Shown piece by piece: positions 24,792-36,947 of a stretch of 64,000 nt of DNA. The stretch comes from Candidatus Eiseniibacteriota bacterium (GTDB lineage Bacteria > Eisenbacteria > RBG-16-71-46 > CAIMUX01 > VGJL01). The DNA lies in the NCBI GenBank assembly GCA_041946735.1, contig JBHGAY010000008.1:64001-128000 (forward strand), written 5' to 3'. The notes beneath the pieces were generated by a model. That model made no database searches, was not told where the DNA came from, and worked only from the letters and a program-made list of their open reading frames with translations. Position 1 is the stretch's first letter. Each line of letters starts with the position of its first letter. The translations under genes were made by a program, and so were the position numbers.

Positions 24792-27278
24792 TCAGCGCAA
24801 GAGCCGCAGCTTGACGCTCGCCGCCTCGCCGGCGAGTCTGCGCGTCCCGCTCGTCATTCGGGCGAGGTAGACGCCGCTCGGCGCCAGCTCGCCGGTCTCC
24901 ATGCGCCCATCCCACACGGCCTCACCGTTGCCGGAAGCGAGCATGCGCACGATTCTGCCTGCCGGGTCGACGATGGTGATCGTCGCTTCCTCCGTCCCCC
25001 GAGGCATGCGGAAGAGGATCCGCGGGGACGAGCCGGTCGCAGGATTGGGGAACGCGCGGAGCGACGAATCGTCCGAGCCGTTCCATGCCTCCTCGCCGAG
25101 ACCCGCCAGCGGCGGCAGCGCGCTGGTCCATGTCCCCGTGCTGGTGGAGAGGAGCACGCGTGGCTCGGAACCTCCGCTGTGCGCGAGACCGCGCGCGTAA
25201 CCGGAGCTGGCGAGGCCGGCGTTCCATGCCGAGAAGCTCGCTCCTCCGTTCGTCGACAGCATCACCTTCTCCGGGTCGGGCCGCGTGATCCACACGTTGT
25301 TCGCATCGTTCGGATCGCAGAGGACGCTCCAGACCGAGCCGGTGCCCGCGTATCCCGCGCTCGCCCAGCTGACGCCTCCGTTGGTCGTCTTGTACACGCC
25401 TCCGGCCCCGGCCGCATAGTTGCCGTCCGCGTAGTAGAGCGTCTGCGGATCGCCGCGGAGGACTGAAAGGCTCATCCCGCGCGCTCCCGGATGCAGGCCG
25501 GCGCTCGAATCGAACCAGTGAAGACCCCCGTCGGTCGTCCGGAGCGCTCCTCCGGTGTTCTGGCTGAAGTCGGCGAAGGCCGCGACGGCGATCTGGTCGG
25601 TCCCATCGTCGACGCGCTCGATGTCCTCGACAGTCTCCGACTCGATACTCTCGTACGCCTTCTTCCAGTTCGTCCCGCCGTCCGTGGTCAGCCAGACGGT
25701 CGCCTGGAAGCCGGCGACGCCGAAGTCAGCGCCTCCCGCTAGGATCGTGCCGGGCGCCTGGCGGCTGAAGCAGAGGCTCGTGAGGTCGGATTCGTAGAGG
25801 TCCCCCTGGTCGGGGCCGAGGCCCGTCCACGTGCCGTCCGGGTTGCGACGATACAGCCCCTCGGGAGCGACGCTGCTCGGTCCCGAAGAGATCGCGTAGA
25901 GCGTGCCATCGTAGGCGAAGCCCACGTGGCTATAGCGGGTGGGCGGGACCGCCTCGAGCCCCCAGCTCTCCCCGCCGTCGGTCGAGCGATAGACGCCGCC
26001 GTCGTTCTGGCCCTGGTACGCGATTGCGATCTCGAGGGGATCGACGGGGCTCGCGGCGACGGAATAGACATCGAGCGCCATGATCCCGTTCGAGGATGGC
26101 ACGAAGGTCGCGCCTCCATCCTCGCTCTGGTACACACCGAGAGAGCCCAAGCCGAGCAGGATCCGCGAGGCGCTCGCGGGGGCGAACCGAACCGAGCGGA
26201 CCGAGAACGACCCGCTTCCTCCGATCCCGAACGACCAGCTGACCCCGCCGTTCGTCGACCGGAAGACGCCGTCCCCGTCGGTGCCGGCGAGCAGGACGGA
26301 GGAGTTCGTGGGATCGATCTCGATGTCGCGCACGTAGAGGTTCGGCCATCCGCCGGACAGATCCGTCCAGCTCGCGCCGTTGTTCGTCGACGCGTAGAGC
26401 CCGACGTACTGCGATCCGAAGAGCATGCCGCCGCCGACCAGCACGCGGCTGCCGTCATGCACGACGTCCATCATCGGGTTGCCGGGAAGCCCCGCGGAGC
26501 GGTTGACCCAGCTCCCCCCGCCGTTCGTCGTCACCCACACGGCGCCGCCCCCGAAGCTGCCGCCGAAGCAGGCGTAGACCGAGTTGGAGTCGCCGGGGCG
26601 CACCGCGATGGAGCGGCACGCGAGCGGGGACATCGGGGGCGTCATGTTTGCCCAGCTCGTTCCGCCGTTCGTCGAGCGGATGACGTTGATCGGCTGGGCT
26701 CCCATCGCGTCGTCGACACCGGCCCAGATCGTGTTGGAATTGTTCGGATCGATGGTGACCTTGAAAATCACATCGTTCAGTCCGATGCCCAGCGCGAGCT
26801 GCGTCCAGTTCACCCCGGCGTTCGTGCTCTTCCAGATCCCATCGGTCGTCGCGGCGAAGACGGTCCCGGCCGGTGTGAACGCAATGCCATAGACGCTTTT
26901 CCCGGTGAGCGCCGAAACCGGGGACCAGTGGGCGCCGCCGTCGGTCGACCGGAACAGAAGCCCCGTGCCCCCGTCGGGCGCGAGTCCGGCGAGCGCCAGG
27001 TTGGGGTCGACCGGGGAGACGACCGCATCTTCGACGGTCCCCCCGAAGGGTCCGAGGGGGCCCCAGTCGGCCACGGGGGGATCTGTGCGCAGGTCGTCAC
27101 CAGGCAACCCGGGAGCCTCGATCCCGGGAGCGACCGCTTTCGCCCCCGTCCCGTCGATCCGGACCGAAGGATCTGCCGGATCCGGGAAGACGCGCTCGGG
27201 CGCCGGCGAGGCGAGCGAGGTGCTGGCGATCAGCAGGCAGAGGGCGAAGAGGGTGGTGGGAATGGAACGAACCCGCAT
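24792..27278 (-). CDS. Secreted BNR/Asp-box beta-propeller protein with FlgD-Ig C-terminal domain
   Basis: More than 10 (S/T)T(N/D)GGxxW repeats; signal peptide; FPNP...WDGRMETGELAPSGVYL. Confidence 0.85.
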   Translation of the reverse strand: MRVRSIPTTLFALCLLIASTSLASPAPERVFPDPADPSVRIDGTGAKAVAPGIEAPGLPGDDLRTDPPVADWGPLGPFGGTVEDAVVSPVDPNLALAGLAPDGGTGLLFRSTDGGAHWSPVSALTGKSVYGIAFTPAGTVFAATTDGIWKSTNAGVNWTQLALGIGLNDVIFKVTIDPNNSNTIWAGVDDAMGAQPINVIRSTNGGTSWANMTPPMSPLACRSIAVRPGDSNSVYACFGGSFGGGAVWVTTNGGGSWVNRSAGLPGNPMMDVVHDGSRVLVGGGMLFGSQYVGLYASTNNGASWTDLSGGWPNLYVRDIEIDPTNSSVLLAGTDGDGVFRSTNGGVSWSFGIGGSGSFSVRSVRFAPASASRILLGLGSLGVYQSEDGGATFVPSSNGIMALDVYSVAASPVDPLEIAIAYQGQNDGGVYRSTDGGESWGLEAVPPTRYSHVGFAYDGTLYAISSGPSSVAPEGLYRRNPDGTWTGLGPDQGDLYESDLTSLCFSRQAPGTILAGGADFGVAGFQATVWLTTDGGTNWKKAYESIESETVEDIERVDDGTDQIAVAAFADFSQNTGGALRTTDGGLHWFDSSAGLHPGARGMSLSVLRGDPQTLYYADGNYAAGAGGVYKTTNGGVSWASAGYAGTGSVWSVLCDPNDANNVWITRPDPEKVMLSTNGGASFSAWNAGLASSGYARGLAHSGGSEPRVLLSTSTGTWTSALPPLAGLGEEAWNGSDDSSLRAFPNPATGSSPRILFRMPRGTEEATITIVDPAGRIVRMLASGNGEAVWDGRMETGELAPSGVYLARMTSGTRRLAGEAASVKLRLLR

Positions 27279-27452: not shown

Positions 27453-27538
27453 GACCCTCTTGTGGGGTGGCGGCGAGGGGCGTGCGGCCCAGACGTCAGG
27501 CCTCCCTCCTGTCCGCGAAGAATCAAAGAGAGAACCAA

Positions 27539-27790
27539 TTGCGGGACGGCCGGAAAGGACAGCGCGGGGACGACCCGCGCACCTACTACCGAAGCGTCCT
27601 CGCCCTGATGACGATTCCGTTCGTCCTCGGAGTCGCGCCGGTGATCGGCTGGTGGTTCGGGCGATGGGTCGATCGGAAGGCCGGCACGGACTGGGTGTTC
27701 CAGGCGATCGGCGTCGCCCTCGGTCTCGGCGCGGGAGTCCGCGAGACCATTCTCGTCATTCGGAAGGTGCAGCGGGATCTGGATCGCTGA
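27539..27790 (+). CDS. atpZ: AtpZ/ATPase gene 1 family small membrane protein (TTG start inferred)
   Basis: Two TMs, GWWFGRWVDRKAGT motif; first gene of atp operon. Confidence 0.75.
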   Translation: MRDGRKGQRGDDPRTYYRSVLALMTIPFVLGVAPVIGWWFGRWVDRKAGTDWVFQAIGVALGLGAGVRETILVIRKVQRDLDR

Positions 27791-27799
27791 AGCGCGCAG

Positions 27800-29317
27800 A
27801 TGCGCGGGAGGTCGCTCGGCTTGGTAGGCGAATCGGCGGCGGCACGCGGGCTCGACTTCGGTCCGCGCTTTCTGCGCCGCATCCTCGTCACGACGACCTG
27901 GCTCGGTGGGGTCGTCTTCCTCTGCGTCGCCGTCTACGTGGGTCTTGGCGCGGCCCTCGCCTGGATCGCCGGCGTCGCGCTCGGCCTCGCCGACCTCCAT
28001 CTGCTCGATCGTCTTCTCGCCGAGGCGATGGGGGCGCGTCGAAAGCCCGCGCTCGTCCTCCTGGGCTTCCTCAAGGTGATCGGGATCTACGCCGCCGGCG
28101 CTGTTCTGCTCTTCGTCCTGCGGCTCTCTCCCTGGTATCTGCTCGCCGGCTTCTCCCTCTTTCTCGCCGTGATCTTCCTGAAGGTCCTCGGACGGCTCCT
28201 TCTCTCCTCCTCTCCGATGCGGAAGGACCGAGATGGCCCGGGCGGCCCCTGGCTGCGCCAAGGCCCGGGGCGTGGCCTCCTCCTCGTTCTCGCGTTCGCC
28301 GGCAGCCTCGCTCTCGGGGGAGCGGCGAGTGTCGCGCACGCGCAGGCTTCCACCGAGCACGGAGCCGCGGCGGTCGCGCAGGCTTCCCCCGAGCACGGAG
28401 CCGCGGCGGCCGCGCCACACGAGGCGGTGGCTCCGGACGGCCTGCCGGCGGGGAGCGACGTCGAGGAGGCGGCGGAGGAGACCACCGCGGAGCACGCGGA
28501 GGCGCACGGGGGTGGCGAAGAGGCTGCCCACGAGGGCCCGATGCTCGAGCTCCCCGACCTCTTTCACAATCTGGAGGCGTACTTCGGAGGCACGGGAGAG
28601 CAGCCTGCCGGCATCATCGACTACCTGTTCCTCTGGAGAGGCCCGATCTTCGCGCTGATCATCCTGCTCACCATCGCGACGCTCCTGCTTCGCGGAGCCG
28701 CGCGCCGCGCGATGATCCCCGGCGGCTTCCAGAATGCGGTCGAGTATGTCGTCGAGGCGTTCTACGACTTCACCTACGGGATCCTGGGACACCACGCGAA
28801 GGAGTTCGCGCCGTTCCTCGGGACGCTGTTCCTCTATATCTGGTTCATGAATCTCTCGGGGCTCGTGCCGCTCTTCAAGGCGCCGACCTCCCTCTTCGAG
28901 ACGACCCTCGCGCTCGCGCTGGTCGTCTTCCTGTACGTGCAGTGGACCGGGATCCGCAAGCTCGGCCTGCTCCGCTACCTGCATCACTTCGCCGGTTCGC
29001 CGTCGGACGTGATGGGATGGTGCATGGTCCCGCTGATGTTCCCGCTGCACCTGATCGGCGAAGTCGCGAAGCCGGTCTCCCTCTCGCTTCGACTCTTCGG
29101 CAACATCATGGGAGAGGACGTTCTGATCGCGATCTTCACCTGGCTCGGCGTCGCGATGCTGGCCGCGATCGGGTCTCCGATCGGAATCCCGCTCGAGTTC
29201 CCGTTCATCTTCCTGGGGCTCTTGCTCTCGACGATTCAGGCCCTGGTGTTCACGCTGCTCAGCGCCATCTACTTCTCGCAGATGCTCCCGCACGAAGAGG
29301 AGCATGGGGCTCATTGA
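27800..29317 (+). CDS. atpB: Fused ATP synthase protein I (AtpI-like, aa 1-139) and Fo subunit a
   Basis: C-terminal IPGGFQNAVE, KPVSLSLRLFGN (essential Arg), IQALVFTLL; N-terminal four-TM AtpI-like block in the same frame with no stop. Confidence 0.9.
   Translation: MRGRSLGLVGESAAARGLDFGPRFLRRILVTTTWLGGVVFLCVAVYVGLGAALAWIAGVALGLADLHLLDRLLAEAMGARRKPALVLLGFLKVIGIYAAGAVLLFVLRLSPWYLLAGFSLFLAVIFLKVLGRLLLSSSPMRKDRDGPGGPWLRQGPGRGLLLVLAFAGSLALGGAASVAHAQASTEHGAAAVAQASPEHGAAAAAPHEAVAPDGLPAGSDVEEAAEETTAEHAEAHGGGEEAAHEGPMLELPDLFHNLEAYFGGTGEQPAGIIDYLFLWRGPIFALIILLTIATLLLRGAARRAMIPGGFQNAVEYVVEAFYDFTYGILGHHAKEFAPFLGTLFLYIWFMNLSGLVPLFKAPTSLFETTLALALVVFLYVQWTGIRKLGLLRYLHHFAGSPSDVMGWCMVPLMFPLHLIGEVAKPVSLSLRLFGNIMGEDVLIAIFTWLGVAMLAAIGSPIGIPLEFPFIFLGLLLSTIQALVFTLLSAIYFSQMLPHEEEHGAH
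28340..28411 (+). repeat. 2 x 36-bp tandem repeat (AQASTEHGAAAV / AQASPEHGAAAA)
   Basis: Direct duplication visible in DNA within the atpI-atpB linker. Confidence 0.85.
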
Positions 29318-29378: not shown

Positions 29379-29609
29379 ATGACCGGTACGCTTCTTCACT
29401 TGGCGCTCCCCCTCGGCCTCGGGATCGCCGCATTCGGATCCGCCATCGGCCTCGGCCGCGCCGTCGGCAGCGCGATGGAGGCGATGGGCCGGCAGCCGGA
29501 AGCTGCCGGGAAGATCCAGGTCGGCATGGTGATCGGTTGCGCCTTCATCGAGGCGCTCACGATCTACGCCCTCGTCACCGTCTTCGTGCTCCAGGGAAGG
29601 CTCGGCTAG
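29379..29609 (+). CDS. atpE: ATP synthase Fo subunit c
   Basis: AAGGAGG RBS; RQPEA loop; conserved Glu in FIEALTIY. Confidence 0.96.
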   Translation: MTGTLLHLALPLGLGIAAFGSAIGLGRAVGSAMEAMGRQPEAAGKIQVGMVIGCAFIEALTIYALVTVFVLQGRLG

Positions 29610-32471: not shown

Positions 32472-34842
<2,371 letters not shown>

Positions 34843-34877
34843 CGCGCAGGCGCGGACCGAGCGAACGGGGAGACCGA

Positions 34878-35285
34878 ATGGCCGAGACGTTTCATCTGAG
34901 CCTGCTGACGCCGGAGCGGTCGGTGCTCGAGGCGCCGGTGGAATCGATCATCGTTCCTGGAGAGGACGGCTACCTTGGAGTGCTCGCGCACCACGCCCCG
35001 TTGATCGCCGCCCTCGCTCCCGGGAAGCTGACGGTTCGGCGCGCCGACGGCACCACGAGCATCTGGGCGCTATCGGGCGGGTTTCTCGAGGTGTCCGAGA
35101 ACCAGGCGACGGTGCTGGCCGATGCTCTCGAGGAGCCTTCGAAGATCGATGTCGAGCGGGCGCAGCGTGCCGCCGACCGCGCCCGCGAGCGGCTGCGCGA
35201 CACGACCGGCGCGTTCGACATCGAAAGGGCCGGCCTCGCATGGGCTCGGGCTCTGAACCGGCTGAAGCTCGCGGGACCTGCCTGA
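34878..35285 (+). CDS. atpC: ATP synthase F1 subunit epsilon
   Basis: LLTPER, GYLGVLAHHAP, SGGFLEV; C-terminal helical hairpin. Confidence 0.95.
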   Translation: MAETFHLSLLTPERSVLEAPVESIIVPGEDGYLGVLAHHAPLIAALAPGKLTVRRADGTTSIWALSGGFLEVSENQATVLADALEEPSKIDVERAQRAADRARERLRDTTGAFDIERAGLAWARALNRLKLAGPA

Positions 35286-35668
35286 TCCGCCTGTCGCGCC
35301 CGGCATGCCGGATCGGCAGCCCTTGCCGATCGGTCCTCCTGCTCCTCTTCCTCGCTACCGGCCTCGCGGCGGGCGGCTGCGCGCGCAAGCAGCCGCCTCC
35401 GATCCAGACCGACCTGCGCTGGGAGGACGTGCGCCCGCTGATCGAGCGGACCTGCGTCGCCTGCCACTCCCGGGCCGACACGTTGAAGGGTCCCAACGCG
35501 CACGGCGTGAATCTCGAGAGCTACGAGCGCGTCGCGCGCCATCGGAAGTCGATCTATGAATCGGTCGTGAGCGAGCGAACGATGCCTCCCGACACGCTGG
35601 GCATCCGGCTGACCGACGGGGAACGCGCGCGCTTGTCGGAGTGGCTCCGCGGAGGGGCCCCGCGCTGA
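35240..35668 (+). CDS. Monoheme cytochrome c, predicted lipoprotein (start uncertain)
   Basis: Hydrophobic stretch ending AAGG-C; CVACH heme motif; MPP putative axial Met; nearest in-frame ATG at 35240 overlaps atpC. Confidence 0.72.
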   Translation: MGSGSEPAEARGTCLIRLSRPACRIGSPCRSVLLLLFLATGLAAGGCARKQPPPIQTDLRWEDVRPLIERTCVACHSRADTLKGPNAHGVNLESYERVARHRKSIYESVVSERTMPPDTLGIRLTDGERARLSEWLRGGAPR

Positions 35669-35702: not shown

Positions 35703-36947
35703 CTATCGGGTCACGACGAGCCGCTTCACCGCCTCGGAGCCCGCGCTGCGAACGCGAACGAGATAGACCCCGGCCGCCCACCGGCTCGTGTCGAACGTGA
35801 TCGCCCGGTCTTCCGAGGACGTGGCGACCTTCTCGGGAACGTCGAGCAGAAGCCGCCCCGAAAGGTCGTAGACCTGGGCGCCGAACGCCGTCCCTTCGCG
35901 GGCAGGCATCCGCAGGACCGCGAAGGACCGGCTCGGTTGAGGGAAGGGACCCTCCAAGCGGAGAGCGGGCGCGGGAGACTCTTCCGGGCCCACGGCGCTC
36001 GGTGCCCCGCAATCGCCGTCCCCGTCGAGCGTCCTCAGGAGCAGGCCGCCGGGGCCGGCGATCAGGAACTCCGAATCGGTGACCGCCTCGGCGGCATAGT
36101 AGTCGTGCGCCGGCGCCTGCAATGTGCACCAGTTCTCGCCTCCGTCGGCGCTGCGCAGCACCGCGCCTCCCAAGCCGGCGGCGAGAAGATGATCCTCGTT
36201 CTCCTTGCTGAAGCTGACCGCGCGAAGCGTGGCGTTCGTTCCGCTGGGCATGGCGCTCCACGTCTCCCCGCCGTCGGTGCTCCTGAGGATCGTTCCGGCG
36301 TCACCGACTACGTAGACGCGGCTTGGGTCGGTATGCGGCTGAGCGATCCCGTAGAGGTTCGCTGTCGTGCCGCTCTCGACCGCCGTCCACGTCACCCCGT
36401 CGGCGGTCTTCAGGATCGTGCCGCCATCTCCTACCGCCCATGCAGGTCCGGTGGGGAAGCCATCGCCGGCGTTCAAGTTGGCGTTCGTTCCGCTTTCGAC
36501 CTTCGTCCATGAGTTCCCCGCGTCCGTGGTCACGTAGATTCGGCCGCCGTCGCCGACCGCAACCGCCGAGGCGCCGGATCGCGTGAAGAGCCGGAAGTCG
36601 GCCGAATCGGGAATGTCGCGATGGAACAGGAACTGATAGACGCGCAGCCGGACGCTTCCGTGTCCGGCCCCGAGCCACACTTCGCCACCCGTCGGCTCTA
36701 CGACGGAATAGAGGGGCGCGTCGGTCTCGACGTACTGGGCGGTCCACTCTCCGCGATCGCCGCTGGAACGCGCCGCGAAGCCGTGGCCGCCCACGACCCA
36801 GTGATTCGCAAGGTAGGTGTTCTCGATCGCGAAAATGTCTTCCGTCGTGGGCAGATCGATCGGGGTCCAGCTCTGCGCGCCTGCCGGCGTGCCTGTCGCG
36901 AGGCCGCCGAGCAGGACGAAAGAGATCGAGAGAGGAGTGAGTCGCAT
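35703..36947 (-). CDS. Secreted YCF48/BNR-type beta-propeller with T9SS-like C-terminal domain
   Basis: Repeats VGDxGTIL(K/R)xxDGxxW; signal peptide AGA-Q; AAGVYLVRV...KRLVVTR. Confidence 0.83.
   Translation of the reverse strand: MRLTPLSISFVLLGGLATGTPAGAQSWTPIDLPTTEDIFAIENTYLANHWVVGGHGFAARSSGDRGEWTAQYVETDAPLYSVVEPTGGEVWLGAGHGSVRLRVYQFLFHRDIPDSADFRLFTRSGASAVAVGDGGRIYVTTDAGNSWTKVESGTNANLNAGDGFPTGPAWAVGDGGTILKTADGVTWTAVESGTTANLYGIAQPHTDPSRVYVVGDAGTILRSTDGGETWSAMPSGTNATLRAVSFSKENEDHLLAAGLGGAVLRSADGGENWCTLQAPAHDYYAAEAVTDSEFLIAGPGGLLLRTLDGDGDCGAPSAVGPEESPAPALRLEGPFPQPSRSFAVLRMPAREGTAFGAQVYDLSGRLLLDVPEKVATSSEDRAITFDTSRWAAGVYLVRVRSAGSEAVKRLVVTR

Follow-up and report, generated by a model that had tools for sequence, protein, structure and literature searches.

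This study examined a 64,000-nucleotide stretch of DNA (hereafter the window) from an uncultured soil bacterium of Candidatus Eiseniibacteriota, represented by a metagenome-assembled genome (G000; contig JBHGAY010000008.1, positions 64,001 to 128,000), in which atpI and atpB, the genes for the assembly factor AtpI and for subunit a of the F-type ATP synthase, are joined in frame into a single open reading frame (ORF). An earlier note, made from the letters alone, had described one 505-residue frame holding both halves; the ORF was recovered at the same place and is stop-free (Table 1), and the fused frame is a genuine in-frame atpI-atpB fusion, not an artefact. According to a DNA alignment with sister genomes, the fusion arose by a deletion that joined the AtpI tail (...LRQGPG) to the arginine and hydrophobic core of a signal peptide which formerly opened subunit a (RG-LLLVLAFAGSLALGG-AASVAHA|Q). 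The resulting precursor is predicted to be cut at A181 by signal peptidase I, with a probability of roughly 60%.

One might suspect an error of assembly or sequencing behind the single frame, the real organism having two genes; in favour of this are the fragmented state of the assembly (72 contigs) and the four informative relatives of the same family, which are unfused. Against it stand the independent read data: a contig from run X2, an industrial-waste metagenome of an independent study (record 9, depth 7.9), covers positions 27932-28353 and therewith the entire fusion joint, reproducing the junction letter for letter with 0 differences and 0 gaps, and Logan contigs of run X1, the probable source, carry the whole stretch at a depth of 28.9 with no difference. 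A stop or frameshift between the halves, which the earlier note had named as telling against a fusion, is absent from the independent X2 contig. Additionally, the joint keeps no leftover ATG/TGA overlap in any frame, the loss of 14 nucleotides described below is atypical of homopolymer errors, and natural atpI-atpB fusions are common in the phylum; an artefact is hardly credible on these data. The X2 data have a hole at 28354-28525, over a 36-bp duplication, so that the duplication is confirmed by X1 alone. Run X9 (raw reads, same study as X1) yielded four reads of 90-95% likeness over a conserved part only, and run X3 covered 13 of 30 bins, the fusion joint not among them.

The C-terminal half holds a complete subunit a, as had been read from the sequence, and passes the cut-offs of both family models. 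ATP-synt_A (PF00119) matches residues 286-493 with an E-value of 3e-52 (178.1 bits against a cut-off of 33.9), TIGR01131 scores 129.3 bits against a cut-off of 102.6, and the core is 70-79% identical to that of sister genomes. The LRLFGN motif (R431-L432-F433-G434-N435) is invariant in 28 fused sequences, and its arginine is the essential Arg facing the c-ring (R210 in E. coli). PF00119 has a single match in this 94.8%-complete genome and no V-type subunit I was found there; therefore, the fused gene must supply subunit a. A C-terminal M-L-P-H-E-E-E-H-(G/A)-H tail (29285-29314) was also observed to be conserved in fused and unfused forms alike, with P497 and H498 invariant in 28 sequences.

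The N-terminal half is best read as a diverged AtpI homologue, linked to the family by transitive homology rather than by a direct profile match. Residues 1-139 of G000 gave no PF03899 or NCBIfam match at E <= 1, a PF03899 scan of its own genome returned only a weak, unrelated place (contig C33, E 0.049), and a protein search with residues 1-300 alone gave no match. A tblastn search with the block located homologous blocks at E 1e-39 to 7e-5 outside the two loci of G000 itself, and PF03899 is matched over its full length (positions 1-99) at E <= 0.1 by 17 of the 18 relatives' aligned blocks, three of them above the 25.1-bit cut-off. The underlying alignment (A1) comprises 19 of the 24 matches, with L003, L005, L014 and L017 left out as partial and L019 as near-identical to L016; the G000 block carries all seven of its invariant columns. 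A profile built from the blocks and run against 1.84 billion proteins collected 1429 representatives at E <= 0.001, and PF03899 matched 20 of the 32 stand-alone representatives scanned at E <= 0.01 (five above the cut-off). The same kind of profile run against PDB sequences found only presenilin (E 0.037), which was taken as noise. AlphaFold2 models four helices (22-46, 49-78, 82-106 and 111-136) with a predicted local distance difference test score (pLDDT) of 85-97 per block, for which the positive-inside rule predicts an N-in/C-in topology. AtpI is itself a four-helix protein. Four transmembrane helices are likewise given for the plant relative CGL160 in a passage of PMC4383579, and the order atpZ-atpI-atpB is described for the Bacillus pseudofirmus OF4 operon in a passage of PMC4453477.

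The block is thus read as AtpI because of this transitive homology to PF03899 together with the synteny atpZ-[block]-atpB-atpE, and the four-helix, AtpI-like character that the earlier note had assigned to it is upheld; the alternative named there, a block with no AtpI homology, fails, the link being transitive and not direct. Compared with stand-alone AtpI/UncI proteins (PF03899), the block is alike in its four hydrophobic helices and its place between atpZ and atpB, and its relatives match the profile end to end. It differs in having no stop codon and continuing into subunit a (no stop before 29315), in being too diverged for a direct Pfam match, and in carrying a conserved basic tail of ~25 residues that lies outside the Pfam model.

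The hydrophobic segment ending in A-H-A181|Q182, to which the earlier note had drawn attention, was confirmed on the translation. Its core, L160-G174 (LLLVLAFAGSLALGG), spans 15 residues, ends in GG and is followed by A179-H180-A181|Q182 (Q182 at 28343-28345). The build of a signal peptide is complete, with basic R153 and R158, the core, and small residues A179 and A181 at -3 and -1, and yet it begins at residue 159, behind four helices, not at the N-terminus of the precursor; AlphaFold2 draws a fifth helix over residues 157-193 (pLDDT 55-70). The same elements open the unfused relatives: in sister genomes, subunit a begins with M-x-R-R, then a hydrophobic core, then A-x-A. Of the 32 closest stand-alone subunits a, 30 have a basic n-region at their start with an uncharged segment behind it (median length 19 residues), and by a crude rule small residues occupy -3 and -1 in 24 of the 30 with a signal segment, P0005 (truncated gene call, no segment) and P0024 (truncated, its segment being helix 1 of subunit a) having been left out. 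Directly behind the segment, the most frequent residues in the 31 rows counted are E (15) and Q (7). Together these features indicate that the lineage makes its subunit a as a precursor with an apparently cleavable Sec signal peptide, and on this comparison the signal peptide of G000 is ancestral and intact. A similar signal-peptide build was noticed by eye in other exported proteins of the window (e.g., ...GTPAGA|QSW in a 414-residue ORF).

Behind the predicted site lies a linker with pLDDT < 50 for residues 191-249, whose length and repeats vary among relatives. The 36-bp duplication that the earlier note had seen here was recovered by Tandem Repeats Finder; it gives AQAS(T/P)EHGAAA twice and creates a second site, A191-V192-A193|Q194. 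Use of that second site was rejected, as it falls 12 residues past the first and far from the hydrophobic core. Lineage-wide (L003-L027, P0002-P0113), the N-terminus of subunit a was observed to be extended on the periplasmic side by ~12-100 residues, with much His, Asp/Glu, Ala and Gly and often with short tandem repeats (HGEAT four times in L015, AHD(A/T)K three times in L006, AHA/DHA runs in L021), up to a conserved PELP(N/D) motif. Such an extension could conceivably bind metal or collect protons where the outer half-channel opens.

The origin of the fusion can be traced in the DNA. All four informative genomes of this family have atpI and atpB as two genes in different frames, overlapping by ATGA (L003, L004 and L005) or TGATG (L006); the final atpI codons contain a Shine-Dalgarno (SD)-like GGAG in L003, L004 and L006 and only a weak GAGCGGA in L005. 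At the joint, G000 is 14 nucleotides shorter than L003 and L004 and 11 shorter than L006 in the MAFFT alignment, both being of the form 3n+2; these sizes depend on the alignment, the firm quantity being the 3n+2 net difference between conserved flanks. The missing 14 nucleotides sit exactly at the sisters' GGAG...ATGA, and R158-G159-LLLVL of G000 aligns with RR-ILPLVL in the sisters' signal peptide. A single deletion, of 14 nucleotides in this alignment, thus took out the SD sequence, the start and the stop and brought the two frames into register. By this alignment the ancestor is reconstructed as two genes coupled through an ATGA stop/start overlap, with an N-terminal Sec signal peptide on subunit a. 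The notion of a purpose-built design, which had been implied for this arrangement, gives way to a recent deletion that inherited an existing N-terminal signal peptide. One further genome of the family, G004, was not used: its locus (G004:C1:1652596-1654123, in a 7-contig assembly) has four TGA codons inside the atpI match and subunit a split over several frames, which points to frameshift errors or decay.

The polarity of the event agrees with this reconstruction. The 31 best database matches are all stand-alone subunits a (282-381 residues, 64-78% identity), and every fused database match is at most 48% identical to G000. In a 48-row tree of subunit a, in which 10 of the 28 fused proteins and five of the 15 unfused loci served as outgroups, G000 falls within nested clades of 33, 29 and 26 rows (Shimodaira-Hasegawa-like approximate likelihood ratio support of 99, 97 and 98) whose other 32 rows are unfused. 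In a 30-locus tree, a single clade holding every fused form is rejected by the approximately unbiased test (p ~1e-9). Since G000 is nested among unfused relatives, its fusion is secondary, a recent event of its own. A fused ancestor whose state was kept by G000 was also considered and rejected, G000 lying two well-supported nodes deep among unfused forms. The sister stand-alone subunits a (P0002-P0034, named 'F0F1 ATP synthase subunit A' by NCBI and JGI) are 64-78% identical to G000 in the best local BLASTP alignment, which covers 50-68% of the query, and share with it the acidic/His-rich N-terminal extension, the ELPD/N motif and the signal peptide; they differ in starting with Met and a basic n-region, where G000 has neither start, stop nor SD sequence, and in having atpI as a separate, overlapping gene (read in four sister genomes).

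In the mechanism proposed here, translation would be coupled to atpZ and would begin at or close to 27800. All four AtpI helices would insert N-in/C-in with the basic tail remaining in the cytoplasm, and the old signal peptide would then enter as a fifth, in-to-out segment that presents A-H-A181|Q182 at the outer face. The tail has a net charge of +4 from R132 to R158 (six K/R against two D), and the basic stretch that had been reported was verified on the translation as R141-R158; by the positive-inside rule, this charge would keep the start of the segment on the cytoplasmic side and bring A-H-A to the outside, the orientation of an ordinary signal peptide. A cut after A181 would be made by one of three signal peptidase I paralogues, the genome having three Peptidase_S26 matches (E 3e-47 to 2e-42). 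The predicted products are residues 1-181, that is, AtpI with the old signal peptide as an extra C-terminal helix, and residues 182-505, a mature subunit a with an acidic/His-rich periplasmic N-terminus, in a 1:1 ratio with AtpI at one insertion site. On this proposal, the cell would tolerate the fusion since cleavage at the signal peptidase site reverses it once the chain is made, and this reversal would in turn explain the recurrent fusion and separation of the two genes in the phylum. Of the earlier claim of an AtpI-subunit a precursor with an internal signal peptidase I site, the fusion (a single ORF) and the right topology (tail of +4) have stood up, and cleavage remains at the level of prediction given above.

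A different route to a normal subunit a would be internal initiation independent of an SD sequence at Met140 (28217), with the full-length fusion minor or irrelevant. Met140 is the sole in-frame ATG, GTG or TTG from residue 124 to about residue 207, the end of the scan, so no other start codon stands between residue 124 and the signal peptide, and its product would be a normal-looking precursor with a long basic n-region and the same signal peptide. The alignment speaks otherwise. Stand-alone AtpI tails of the sister genomes follow the consensus ...LKVLGRLLL-x3-M(Q/S)xER-G-GG-LLR-GPG-x5-stop, to which M140-RKDRDGPGGPWLRQGPG of G000 corresponds; Met140 is aligned with Met in three and Leu in one of the four sister tails, and the sister atpB genes start ~20 codons further downstream. 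Because it lies within the conserved AtpI tail, Met140 is a residue of that tail and not a former atpB start, hence no inherited one. As the earlier note had stated, no SD sequence precedes it: the numbering was checked on the translation, the 21 nucleotides in front are all C or T, and the best count is 0 of 6 matches to AGGAGG. A purine-rich SD-like stretch (4-6 of 6) precedes all seven downstream atp genes, and its lack at Met140 weakens the case for a start there. Additionally, ribosomes translating the AtpI block meet no stop ahead of atpB. Initiation chiefly at Met140, which the earlier note had listed as an outcome that would speak against a polyprotein, is improbable in view of these observations.

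The more serious alternative is that the fusion stays uncut, and it is raised by the older fusions elsewhere in the phylum. Searching relatives for both domains on one ORF, as had been suggested, recovered many: among 41 related genomes the genes are fused in G000 and 10 others, separate in 15 and undecidable in four (L028-L031, where contig ends were touched or the N-block had no match). In an evenly drawn sample of the phylum, the fused form is carried by 33 of 121 genomes, G000 among them (32 of 120 once the unpublished genome G052 is set aside); a genome was counted if one stop-free match began no later than residue 73 and reached residue 501 or beyond. Additional genomes hold the two parts in a single open frame, which makes this count a minimum. 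Outside the family of G000 (f1), fused forms occur in families f2, f5, f11, f13 and f14. Among the best 150 representatives of the AtpI profile search, nine are 453-561 residues long; five of these are new and carry ATP-synt_A (P0130, P0135, P0177, P0233 and P0241), the other four were already known from the subunit a search, and two shorter representatives are fused forms cut by contig ends. The older fusions (448-579 residues; e.g., P0091, P0049 and P0033) keep the order of parts found in G000, namely AtpI block, positive linker, hydrophobic segment, His/acidic linker and subunit a, and in each of the 29 fused forms examined a linker of net positive charge (+2 to +11), a single hydrophobic segment and an acidic/His-rich stretch are retained. 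They differ from G000 in sequence and in their place on the tree, and their segments (median ~20 residues) often end in Pro.

The cleavage site itself divides the older fusions from the stand-alone proteins. By the same crude rule, 10 of 32 older fusions have small residues at -3 and -1 of the segment end; among stand-alone subunits a the figure is 24 of 30 (Fisher p 1.4e-4, the kin not being independent; 32 of the 33 were scored, P0233 lacking the anchor motif), and in many the segment ends in Pro followed by Gln or Asn. The older fusions are thus probably often uncleaved. Near their segments, A-x-A|QEH or A-x-A|EEP was seen ~20 residues beyond the hydrophobic stretch in L008, L009, L015 and L022 (P0049, P0048, P0059 and P0091, respectively), a motif that looks like a fossil of the old site or a cleavage region pushed out by an insertion.

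Several points have to be set against the preferred reading of G000, in addition to the missing direct profile match of the AtpI block, the alignment dependence of the deletion size and the serviceable precursor that a start at Met140 would give. Small residues at -3 and -1 are missing from 22 of 32 older fusions, yet such fusions persist in at least five other families, so a tethered AtpI-subunit a protein is evidently viable, and the intact site of G000 may be one too young to have decayed. If uncut, the old signal peptide would serve as a permanent fifth transmembrane anchor, with AtpI tethered to subunit a through the linker of ~64 residues, fixed on the stator side as a companion of the complex; as the linker is long and disordered, such a tether would force no clash. 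The segment of G000 is, however, a textbook signal peptide (15-residue core, GG, A-x-A), as in its unfused sisters, and signal peptidase I, of which three paralogues are present, would be expected to cut an exposed site. Moreover, AtpI is not known to be among the subunits of purified F-type ATP synthases (the E. coli and Bacillus enzymes). A complex prediction for the AtpI block (residues 16-139) with subunit a (residues 246-505) scored 0.00, which counts neither way. A permanent tether in G000 is on balance unlikely, while keeping appreciable weight, and cleavage after A181 is the preferred reading.

Each component of the protein falls into a known family (AtpI, subunit a, Sec signal peptide), and their combination was not found in the papers searched: these yielded no description of AtpI joined to subunit a, nor of a bacterial subunit a that bears a signal peptide, nor any paper on the ATP synthase of Eisenbacteria. 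The statement of the earlier note that the arrangement is undescribed thus holds for the literature searched and not for public Eisenbacteria genomes, where the arrangement is common as 'subunit A'. The nearest mechanistic precedent is FbcH of Bradyrhizobium japonicum, reportedly described by Thony-Meyer, James and Hennecke in 1991 (PNAS 88:5001), in which one gene is said to encode a cytochrome b-c1 precursor that is cut in two at an internal signal peptide. There, the internal signal peptide reportedly stands behind a polytopic membrane protein, and the cut yields two membrane proteins of one complex, which is the mechanism proposed for G000, with other proteins and in another complex. Subunit c of the Aquifex ATP synthase is made with a cleavable signal peptide, and the presequence of yeast Atp6 is removed by Atp23; in both, an N-terminal segment of an Fo membrane subunit is removed, as proposed here, except that it is a short peptide and not a whole assembly factor.

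The accepted role of AtpI is to help with assembly of the c-ring. In a passage of PMC4154653, it is called the least understood gene of the atp operon. Whether the protein is cut or stays tethered, the fusion would imply that AtpI acts in cis at the insertion site of subunit a, in a 1:1 ratio, beyond being a free c-ring chaperone. A quarter or more of the genomes sampled from the phylum carry the fusion, which has at least two origins, and it amounts to Rosetta-stone evidence for AtpI acting beside subunit a as well; fused, split and site-mutated versions would be ready-made constructs for testing this link. As a wider reading, held only tentatively and at less than even odds, the system would be a natural bacterial membrane polyprotein from which signal peptidase I separates AtpI and subunit a, making repeated fusion and separation cheap, as the patchy distribution in the phylum suggests, with the site decayed and AtpI tethered in older lineages. 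The fusion is also a clean natural case of two membrane-protein genes merging harmlessly by way of a stop/start overlap and a cleavable signal peptide, with the causal 14-nucleotide deletion still legible against sister genomes. For annotation, the fused proteins are filed by NCBI and JGI as plain subunit A, ~150-250 residues too long, and their AtpI part has been overlooked.

The fused ORF is the second gene of an atp cluster in the order atpZ, AtpI block, ATP-synt_A and ATP-synt_C, followed by the F, H, A, G, D and C frames (Table 1). The TGA of atpZ lies 9 nucleotides upstream of the fused ORF and in frame with it, so that atpZ, atpI and atpB were seen to share one reading frame (window 27788-27802), separated by the TGA and three codons; one more loss of a stop codon would therefore merge three genes.

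Table 1. Features of the fused gene and of the surrounding atp cluster (positions in the window)
Feature	Position	Strand	Details
atpZ-like gene (PF09527, ATPase_gene1), first in atp cluster	27467..27790 (ORF)	+	Pfam E 2.3e-9, 37.6 bits against a cut-off of 26.6
Fused atpI::atpB ORF	27800..29317	+	505 residues and stop; free of internal stops; only PF00119 match genome-wide
AtpI block, residues 1-139, four helices	27800..28216	+	AlphaFold2 model; homologous blocks at 24 loci
Conserved, predicted cytoplasmic AtpI tail, residues 132-158, including Met140 (28217)	28193..28273	+	Aligns with stand-alone AtpI tails of L003-L006
Fusion joint G157-R158-G159	28268..28276	+	MAFFT DNA alignment of G000 with L003-L006
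Signal peptide, once N-terminal in subunit a and now internal	28277..28342	+	h-region L160-G174, c-region A175-A181; predicted signal peptidase I site after A181
36-bp tandem duplication	28339-28415	+	Tandem Repeats Finder: period 36, 2.1 copies, 95% matches, score 140
Predicted periplasmic disordered linker, residues 182-245	28343..28534	+	21 A, 12 E, 7 G and 6 H of 64
Subunit a core, residues 246-505, conserved ELPDL motif to C-terminal PHEEEHGAH	28535..29314	+	PF00119, TIGR01131
atpE (subunit c)	29379..29609	+	PF00137 E 2.3e-15; AAGGAGG in front
atpF, H, A, G, D, C (b, delta, alpha, gamma, beta, epsilon)	after atpE to ~35285	+	ORFs

Just past atpC, at ~35300-35668 (+) within the frame 34757..35668, a short frame was noticed with a signal-like hydrophobic start and a haem-binding C-x-x-C-H motif (CVACH), which may be a small c-type cytochrome. 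The atp cluster is flanked by two predicted exported proteins, at 24792-27278 (-) and 35703-36947 (-), both of which, read by eye, carry many ST(N/D)GG..W repeats and a similar C-terminal domain of ~80 residues.

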